DNA from: Halorutilales archaeon Cl-col2-1
GTDB taxonomy: Archaea; Halobacteriota; Halobacteria; Halobacteriales; Afararchaeaceae
Length of the DNA: 64,000 nt
Assembly: GCA_041891055.1 (NCBI GenBank)
Contig: CP169074.1
Coordinates: forward strand, 1,536,001 to 1,600,000
Direction of reading: 5' to 3'
In this document: piece after piece, positions 32,082 to 32,850 of the stretch
How the letters are laid out: each line of letters starts with the position of its first letter
Numbering within the stretch: the first letter of the stretch is position 1
Program-made: the position numbers and the translations under genes
Notes under the pieces: generated by a model
What the model was told of the DNA's origin: nothing
Seen by the model: only the letters and a program-made list of their open reading frames with translations
The model's database searches: none

Positions 32082-32717
32082 TTATACCTCCACTTCTACG
32101 GCGGGTCCCATAGTCGTCTTCACGAAGATGCGGTCTATGTTGAGTGGACCCTTTTCGAGTTCGGCTGTGAGTCTACGCATTACCGCGTTTATGTTGTCGG
32201 CTATCGCGTCGGCGGACATCTCCTCCGTCCCGACTGCGGTGTGGAAGGTTCTCCTGTCACCCGAACGCAGAGAGACGGTTCCCTTGAGACGCTGAACCTC
32301 CTCGGCTACGTCGTCGTCGGGGGCAAGAGGTGTCGGCATCTTACCTCGGGGTCCTAAGACCGTACCGAGGTAACGTCCGACGTCCTCCATGAACTCTGTC
32401 TCTGCGACGAAGAAGTCGGTCTCGTCGGCGAGATCCTTCGCGGCGTCCTGATCGTCTCCAAGATCCTCTATGTCGTCGGGGCTCAGGACATCGTCGGCGA
32501 CGTCCTCAGCCTGGAGTGCCGTCTCTCCGTCGGCTATCACGGCAACCTTTGTGTCACGCCCCGTGCCCTCGGGGAGGACGACCTCCTCATCTATCCTCTT
32601 ATCGGGCTGACTCAGGTCGAGATCCCTGAGATTTATAGCCATATCGACGCTCTCGACGAAGTTCCTCTCGGGAGCCTCGTCGAGTGCCTCCGAGACTGAC
32701 TCCTCTATGCTAGCCAT
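32082..32717 (-). CDS. rpl1: 50S ribosomal protein uL1
   Basis: [22 protein letters not shown]. Confidence 0.97.
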
Positions 32718-32779
32718 TAGGAGTCACCTCCGAGCGTGTGCGGTACTCTCGTGTCTGTGTGTTCTGTCTGTGTCTTCAT
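32717..32779 (-). CDS. Putative 20-aa leader peptide (uORF) overlapping the rpl1 start
   Basis: GGAGGT-6 nt-[23 protein letters not shown]; the stop TAA overlaps the rpl1 ATG (TAATG). Confidence 0.5.
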
Positions 32780-32785
32780 CTAGAT

Positions 32786-32850
32786 ACCTCCGTAGTACGG
32801 CGTAAGCCTTCTACGAAGCCGTGGTACTGCCCGCAGAACGGGGTAGCCAC
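32786..32850 (-). promoter_or_regulatory. Structured rpl1 leader, candidate L1 autoregulatory operator
   Basis: Hairpin CGTAG-AA-GGC-TTAC-GCC-GTA-CTACG abuts the SD GGAGGT; a second hairpin lies at 32821-32850. Confidence 0.55.

Follow-up and report, generated by a model that had tools for sequence, protein, structure and literature searches.

The window analysed here, a stretch of 64,000 nucleotides (nt) from the haloarchaeon Halorutilales archaeon Cl-col2-1 (contig CP169074.1, positions 1,536,001 to 1,600,000; genome of 2.06 Mb, hereafter G000), carries on its minus strand the ribosomal protein operon rpl1-rpl10-rpl12, and the subject of this study is the 213-nt intergenic region between rpl1 and the divergent gene for methenyl-tetrahydromethanopterin cyclohydrolase. 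Within this leader, a hairpin resembling the binding site of ribosomal protein L1 on 23S rRNA is followed by a Shine-Dalgarno (SD) sequence, a 20-codon mini open reading frame (mini-ORF) and a second SD sequence, and the stop codon of the mini-ORF overlaps the rpl1 start codon (Table 1). A sequence-only reading of the window had taken the hairpin for a candidate L1 operator and the mini-ORF for a hidden leader peptide through which the operator would relay control to the operon by termination-reinitiation. We compared the locus with the sister species (G001), the sole other species genome of the same family, and with more distant relatives.

The anatomy described by that reading is verified in its letters and coordinates. 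The hairpin reads CGTAG-AA-GGC-TTAC-GCC-GTA-CTACG at 32815-32791 on the minus strand and runs into the first SD, GGAGGT; after an ATCTAG spacer, the ATG at 32779-32777 opens 20 codons that end in TAA at 32719-32717, and the final A of this stop is also the first base of the rpl1 ATG (32717-32715). A second SD, GGAGGTGA, does lie in the last codons of the mini-ORF, where it spans codons 17-19, 6 nt before the rpl1 ATG. The likeness of this ending to that of the uS3 gene was also correctly seen: uS3, identified by Pfam, ends in ...GGAGGTGATTCGTGATGG, which encodes GGDS followed by the stop and overlaps the next gene as TGATG (minus strand, 45202-45188). The mini-ORF/rpl1 and uS3/next-gene junctions share the design GGAGGTGA-N-TCN-TRATGG, and GGAGGTGA occurs three times in the window, namely at these two junctions and as the complement of the 16S rRNA 3' end.

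The operator is built from a 6-bp outer stem (UCGUAG/CUACGG), an internal loop of AA opposite GUA, a 3-bp inner stem (GGC/GCC) and a UUAC loop. The first two G of GGAGGT sit within its stem, and the first SD is placed as in all other haloarchaeal rpl1 leaders. In sequence, the operator imitates the L1-stalk strands GGUAGGAGCC...UACUACC of 23S rRNA. The genome's own stalk, which lies within the rRNA operon inside the window (23S rRNA at 19623-22529), reads GGUAGGAGCC...GGC...AAAUACUACC, and the leader reads CGUAGAAGGC-UUAC-GCC-GUACUACG; common to both are GUAG-R-AG-G/C in the 5' strand and UACUAC in the 3' strand. According to the published consensus, an L1 site is a stem whose internal bulge holds a possible G-A pair along with an unpaired A; the 5' loop has two bases, the last of them A, and the 3' loop begins with G and ends with A (PMC3616713; here and below, articles are cited for particular passages). 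The operator matches this consensus in outline, that is, in its stem, small asymmetric internal loop and flanking pairs.

To place the hairpin among its relatives, we sampled rpl1 loci from 80 metagenome contigs and 30 genomes, the latter spanning 18 families; removal of four truncated contigs (L051, L096, L107, and L110) left 106 usable loci. The motif C-R-UAG-N-AG ... ACUA-Y-G stands 5' of rpl1 in 96 of them, while the other 10 are cut upstream, carry a variant motif or belong to a distant lineage. In an alignment of 65 of the 67 distinct operator sequences (L064 and L081, with very long inner segments, were omitted), the outer six pairs are paired in 390 of 390 cells, and one of them is G-C in 42 operators and A-U in 23 without a mismatch; because the search pattern itself fixed the other outer pairs (four) and allowed any R/Y at the switching pair, only this G-C/A-U switch is informative, and it may represent a single event. 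The inner helix has at least 3 bp in 60 of the 65, with varied sequences and lengths. Across the order, the operator with an ATG is present in 381 of 401 genomes, including all 295 of high quality.

A covariance model of the leader operators, which included the window's own operator as one row, matched only the leader copy in the whole 2.06-Mb genome (36.1 bits); it retrieved neither a second genomic operator nor the 23S site, whose middle part is longer by about 45 nt. An Rfam search of a 1-kb stretch around the operator returned no fitting family, and its sub-threshold matches to Guanidine-II (E 0.2), SNORA57 and sR44 were judged to be chance. The candidate operator of the sequence-only reading thus gains support from its likeness to the genome's own 23S L1 stalk and from its membership of a conserved motif family, and on these grounds the hairpin appears to be the widespread archaeal L1 operator, standing as it does in the leader of the L1-encoding operon. 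The operator family is wide. Methanomicrobia-like metagenome loci (L056-L106; L1 identity of 43-54%) carry operators with CAUAG/CUAUG in place of CGUAG/CUACG and with longer inner stems, located 9-12 nt before rpl1 and often right after the stop of the preceding gene.

In its distance from rpl1, the operator of this genus stands apart. Among the 96 motif-bearing loci, 94 have 9-15 nt between the operator 3' end and the start of rpl1, compared with 70 nt in G001 and 73 nt in G000, the only two in which an insert of about 60 nt is seen. As a result, the G000 operator does not abut the rpl1 ribosome-binding site and adjoins the start of the mini-ORF instead, whose ATG lies 11 nt past the operator, the usual position of the rpl1 start in other archaea. 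A scan of the 401 genomes found 20 with an operator-linked ATG followed by a non-G base, of which 13 are rpl1 itself and 5 are chance sites elsewhere that lack an SD; a short ORF at such an ATG was found in G000 and G001 only. When the distance from the operator 3' strand to the L1 motif NLRDLDL was scanned in 301 genomes, 140 fell in the normal range of 85-115 nt, two (G000 and G001) at 147-177 nt, and none at 116-146 nt among genomes detectable by this coding pattern, which detects only about half of them. A metagenome search with L1 returned 80 loci, none above 74% identity, and hence no further members of the genus from that search. The arrangement is confined to one small lineage.

The insert itself is present in a single copy in the genome (blastn-short) and is flanked by GGAGGT on both sides. 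Its downstream SD-ATG unit (GGAGGTGA-N6-ATGGC) is closer to the ancestral rpl1 start (GGAGGTGAAC-N-ATGGC) than is the upstream one (GGAGGT-ATCTAG-ATGAAG), and the insert may plausibly have arisen when the start region was duplicated and AC/ACAG-rich sequence expanded. Small insertions are recurrent in this leader. G001 has a 22-nt insert just 5' of the operator (L002, about 1375-1400, plus strand) that is predicted to fold as a small hairpin, ACGCAGACA / UGUUUGCGU, and is absent from G000; a third variant, from metagenomes, has a 20+2-nt insert at the corresponding place (window 32819/32820).

The comparison with G001 also separates what has been kept from what has drifted. At a divergence where L1 is 92% identical and 29 of 98 fourfold sites of rpl1 differ, G001 retains the mini-ORF ATG at the same place, an open frame of 19 codons (MKKDTVHTDPTVYSSGGDS*; net 3-nt indel) and a stop-start overlap, here TGATG. 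From the operator to the ATG only 2 of 42 nt differ (binomial P = 7e-5 against the fourfold rate), indicating that the operator is still under selection in the genus. The last 17 nt, from the second SD to the rpl1 ATG, differ solely at the middle base of the stop codon (A/G), where both forms are stops. The interior of the mini-ORF, on the other hand, has diverged as much as the fourfold sites or more. The third variant, found on contigs of two metagenome runs from one study, has a 6-nt in-frame tandem duplication and 8-9 substitutions within the mini-ORF in a partial list of differences (from which up to 8 may be absent, and in which one substitution occurs in one run only), and none of these introduces a stop. 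As judged from these comparisons, clear selection acts on the operator, the first SD with its ATG, and the junction, and not on the peptide. The peptide of the sequence-only reading accordingly finds no support as a peptide, since the interior has diverged by no less than the 30% measured at fourfold sites of rpl1; with an interior this diverged, translation would matter rather than its product. Neither a frameshift nor a fusion joining the mini-ORF to rpl1 is tenable: the two lie in different frames, and the alignment of rpl1 with all relatives begins at its own ATG.

Newly found at this junction is a predicted hairpin that would lock the second SD and the rpl1 AUG. In the predicted fold, rpl1 codons 3-11 form the strand opposite the second SD (GGAGGUGA) and the AUG, through the pairings AUG:CAU, UGACUCCU:AGGAGUCA, GAGG:UCUC and CUC:GAG. 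The G000 hairpin has a predicted energy of -24.6 kcal/mol (z score -2.67, with 3 of 200 shuffles as good), and the predicted unpaired probabilities in G000 and G001 are 0.10 and 0.15 for the SD and 0.03 and 0.05 for the AUG. The same fold is predicted in G001, at -22.4 kcal/mol. Over the interval from -20 to +45, folding is far stronger in this genus than in 28 other genomes, where energies lie between -7.5 and -15.5 kcal/mol and the SD is unpaired with a probability of 0.22-0.67. Two changes listed for the third variant fall in the helix and convert G-C to G-U, so that pairing is kept. Because the 5' strand of this hairpin consists of mini-ORF codons 16-20, a ribosome finishing the mini-ORF would have to open it. 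If the start of so essential and abundant a protein is buried, something must open it, and translation of the mini-ORF is the obvious candidate.

Table 1. Features of the rpl1 leader and its surroundings (window coordinates)
Feature	Position	Strand	Basis
Methenyl-tetrahydromethanopterin cyclohydrolase gene	32931-33851	+	Pfam MCH
Likely archaeal promoter of the rpl1 operon, resembling a B recognition element (BRE) and TATA box, TTCGGTGGCTTTTTGT	32879..32894	-	By-eye alignment, inference only
Conserved 33-nt upstream leader segment, GCAGTGGCTACCCCGTTCTGCGGGCAGTACCAC	32821..32853	-	Identical in G000 and G001
Putative L1 operator hairpin	32790..32816	-	Conserved motif family, covariance model, 23S likeness
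First SD site, GGAGGT	32786..32791	-	Complementary to the 16S rRNA 3' end ...GGATCACCTCCT
Mini-ORF, 20 codons and TAA	32717..32779	-	Sequence reading, comparison with G001
Second SD site, GGAGGTGA	32724..32731	-	8 nt complementary to the 16S rRNA 3' end
Predicted start-site hairpin	32688..32734	-	Folding, G000 and G001
rpl1 (uL1), 211 amino acids	32082..32717	-	Pfam Ribosomal_L1, E 1e-53
rpl10 (P0)	31031..32080	-	Pfam
rpl12 (P1)	30638..30973	-	Pfam; 57 nt after rpl10
23S rRNA L1 stalk, apparent model of the operator	21768..21832	+	23S rRNA placed by Rfam RF02540

Taken together, these features suggest that the mini-ORF is most likely a relay cistron rather than a peptide gene, and we consider it probable, if well short of certain, that L1 gates the mini-ORF, whose translation opens the hairpin and is followed by reinitiation at rpl1. 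An insertion of about 60 nt would have moved rpl1 away from its usual L1 feedback operator. With the operator free, ribosomes would initiate at the ATG beside it and translate the 20 codons, thereby melting the hairpin that covers the second SD and the rpl1 AUG; they would terminate at the UAA overlapping that AUG, and initiation at rpl1 would follow, whether by ribosomes restarting with the aid of the 8-nt SD or by a newly entering one, with translation of rpl10 following via the next close junction. When free L1 exceeds free 23S rRNA, L1 would occupy the operator and block the mini-ORF start, and without mini-ORF translation the hairpin would stay closed, shutting off rpl1 and the operon. 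The relay proposed in the sequence-only reading is thus retained, strengthened by the identity of the operator and by the ATG, frame and overlap kept in the sister species, with translation of the mini-ORF, rather than its peptide, as the probable agent.

The proposed arrangement combines two known things, L1 feedback and translational coupling. Archaeal L1 autoregulation is described as acting through a small mRNA structure that imitates the 23S L1 site, and excess L1 is held to block translation (PMC2175363, PMC3616713). As in operons of the Methanococcus vannielii MvaL1 type, a 23S-mimicking structure stands at the start of an rpl1-rpl10-rpl12 operon; in archaeal L1 operons, however, it directly adjoins the rpl1 start, whereas here 73 nt with a translated-looking mini-ORF and a second hairpin lie between. 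In M. vannielii, the L1 site is located just inside the L1 gene. The leader of the Halobacterium L1e gene is reportedly the subject of work by Shimmin and Dennis in 1989.

In the L11 operon of Escherichia coli, L1 represses rplK via a leader site and the repression reaches rplA by coupling (PMC12548453, PMC3616713). The logic proposed here is alike, with L1 control of an upstream cistron relayed by coupling, but the E. coli relay is a real ribosomal protein gene (L11) with a spacing of +3 nt, while here it would be a 20-codon ORF with a 1-nt overlap and no conserved product, in a leader that all relatives have without the relay.

Coupling of this form has been reported in haloarchaea: in Haloferax volcanii, 9 of 9 tested overlapping gene pairs are described as strictly coupled, and SD motifs as aiding reinitiation and not de novo initiation at 5' untranslated regions (PMC6728339). 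The mini-ORF and rpl1 resemble such pairs in having co-directional frames, a stop-start overlap (TAATG in G000 and TGATG in G001) and an SD inside the 3' end of the upstream ORF; they differ in that those pairs consist of two full-length genes, whereas here the upstream partner is a mini-ORF carrying what would be a ribosomal protein feedback signal. Unfolding of RNA is likewise a known mechanism of coupling, as in E. coli rpmI-rplT under L20 control (PMC12548453), and a small ORF in the Salmonella mgtA region opens a sequestered ribosome-binding site (PMC8092293). In these systems, as predicted for the present one, a downstream start is buried in structure that upstream translation opens, although they are bacterial and their regulators and structures are unrelated. 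Our literature search found no described upstream ORF (uORF) in an archaeal L1 leader, and the part of Eckert and Weinberg 2020 consulted for this purpose lists no L1 leader (PMC7247131).

Several points weigh against the relay reading. The mini-ORF interior holds only 4 T in 57 nt, which makes stops rare in any frame, and an open frame alone is therefore weak evidence. From the mini-ORF ATG, one of the other frames also stops close to rpl1, at a TGA 9 nt before its ATG in both species (the remaining frame ends at once, at the TGA inside ATGA), so that little selection may be required to keep a frame open and ending near rpl1. The peptide is unconserved, with alternative alignments requiring non-triplet indels, and the evidence base consists of two family genomes and one partly seen variant. 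Among the sequencing runs searched, no RNA run covered the stretch. As for the hairpin, its G001 counterpart is not unusual for its composition (-22.4 kcal/mol, z score -1.21, with 20 of 200 shuffles as good), and the fold of the complete 231-nt leader is no better than those of shuffled sequences (z score -0.65). The comparison with the 28 other genomes is an imperfect control, in that their 20 nt before the start are the operator 3' strand cut from its partner. All folding energies refer to 37 C and standard salt, and not to the haloarchaeal cytoplasm. Finally, the second SD, with its 8-nt match to 16S rRNA, could allow independent initiation if the hairpin breathes.

An alternative is that the insert is a neutral, slippage-prone spacer rich in ACAG and AC, in which case rpl1 would start alone at the second SD, the leftover ATG would perhaps be translated without regulatory effect, and L1 feedback would have been weakened or lost. 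The interior that differs more than the rpl1 fourfold sites and has indels, the tandem duplication of the third variant (which would represent ongoing slippage), the cheapness of open frames in T-poor sequence, the 8-nt anti-SD match of the second SD, and a single-copy insert with no sign of a designed element would all be accounted for. Nevertheless, we regard this explanation as unlikely, since a disconnected relic is not expected to keep its operator, first SD and ATG near-invariant (2 of 42 nt against 30% at neutral sites), and since burial of the second SD and AUG in a predicted hairpin of -22 to -25 kcal/mol would handicap the production of an essential, abundant protein unless the hairpin were opened. 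Moreover, an SD acting by itself at this site would contrast with the H. volcanii report that SD motifs do not drive de novo initiation (PMC6728339).

Another alternative is that the operator acts without the mini-ORF, through mRNA decay, through transcription termination or polarity, or by a refolding that tightens the start-site hairpin, with translation of the mini-ORF being incidental. Consistent with such a role, strong conservation extends over the entire leader 5' of the operator as well, implying that more than the operator matters, and polarity from untranslated RNA has been discussed for archaea (PMC12548453). In our folds, however, the operator and the start-site hairpin did not pair with each other in any alternative structure, the mini-ORF ATG lies at exactly the ancestral start distance, and coupling in a haloarchaeon has been shown for junctions built in this way, with overlapping stop and start and an SD inside the upstream frame (PMC6728339); we accordingly give this explanation little credence. 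A functional small protein as the product of the ORF, or a peptide that senses or arrests in cis as in attenuation leaders, we consider highly improbable: residues common to both species (M-K-x-x-T-x-H-T-D ... G-G-D-S) speak for it, as do the three changes, at H, T, and V, that are synonymous when the alignment is kept in frame, but about half of the residues differ where L1 is 92% identical, the SD and hairpin dictate GGDS, an equally good nucleotide alignment removes the shared residues, and the peptide has neither a Pfam match nor a run of regulatory codons.

A scan of the genome for the same design as the relay mini-ORF found one other mini-ORF, located outside the window between glnA and the ammonium transporter gene amt (G000:C1:327503-327556, plus strand; locus L135). 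It has 17 codons (MITTSKHDTEETQREVA); the glnA stop lies within an SD (TTCTGAGGTGA) that is followed by the mini-ORF ATG, and the last codons contain a further SD (GAGAGGTGGCATAG) with the transporter ATG directly after. This mini-ORF is kept in G001 with two residue changes and is absent 5' of amt in 28 other haloarchaeal loci.

A repeated or mobile start-site cassette is not supported by these data: the rpl1 insert is single copy, a joint profile of both mini-ORFs yielded no further copy in the genome, and the two interiors are not significantly alike, their score being matched or beaten in 65, 1023, 940, and 422 of 2000 shuffles. The two mini-ORFs have a design in common and no common element. 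The third nhmmer match of the joint profile (E 0.19) is the acidic N-terminus of uS14 and not another copy. The uS14 gene (42186-42371, minus strand) starts with an acidic, Thr-rich low-complexity stretch whose DNA composition resembles the mini-ORF interiors.

Since a second mini-ORF of like design lies between glnA and the transporter gene, relay ORFs may be a general device in the genus, and we put forward, as a tentative extension that is itself doubtful, a broader history: that the insertion severed the operator from rpl1 and the circuit was then rewired, the orphan ATG giving rise to a newborn relay mini-ORF and the first codons of rpl1 co-evolving with the new SD into a lock opened only by mini-ORF translation, and that the genus uses short, fast-evolving relay ORFs generally.

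Upstream of the operator, the promoter-like TTCGGTGGCTTTTTGT aligns by eye with a conserved TTCGACGGGTTTAAGT element at a similar distance 5' of the operator in other haloarchaeal rpl1 leaders and is identical between G000 and G001; the transcript of the rpl1 operon would be expected to start about 25 nt downstream of it. A scan for sigma-70 promoters and terminators is inapplicable to archaeal promoters, and its two terminator-like sites at 32909-32884 coincide with the T-run read as the TATA box. The leader segment at 32821..32853 is invariant between G000 and G001 despite the 30% difference at rpl1 fourfold sites. In most haloarchaeal rpl1 leaders (L004-L054), a second conserved hairpin, GAGACAGGC-loop-GCCTGTTTCAC, lies between the promoter and the operator; in the genus of G000 and G001, the different, equally invariant segment replaces this GACAGGC-loop-GCCTGTTTCAC hairpin of the other families. 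Possibly this upstream element binds a protein as well, as a second such site in the L1-P0-P1 operon leader.

Downstream, the rpl1-rpl10 junction (32076-32091, minus strand) reads GTGGAGGTATAAAATG, with an SD within the last rpl1 codons and stop and start 1 nt apart, and P0 is for these reasons probably coupled to L1. The third gene, rpl12, is preceded by its own GGAG.

L1 feedback is among the few translational controls studied in archaea and is thought to occlude the rpl1 start directly. If the relay proposed here is true, the genus would offer a natural case of the same operator acting at a distance through a relay ORF, and an arrangement of the E. coli rplK type would have been reached independently, recently enough for ancestor-like relatives to be found alongside. 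The locus would then be a clean system for the study of uORF function in archaea, of the cooperation between reinitiation and RNA unfolding, and of the survival of a regulatory circuit after an insertion. ORFs of 20 codons at ribosomal operons escape annotation, and if this genus does relay control via short ORFs generally, that would represent a mode of regulation hardly documented in archaea.

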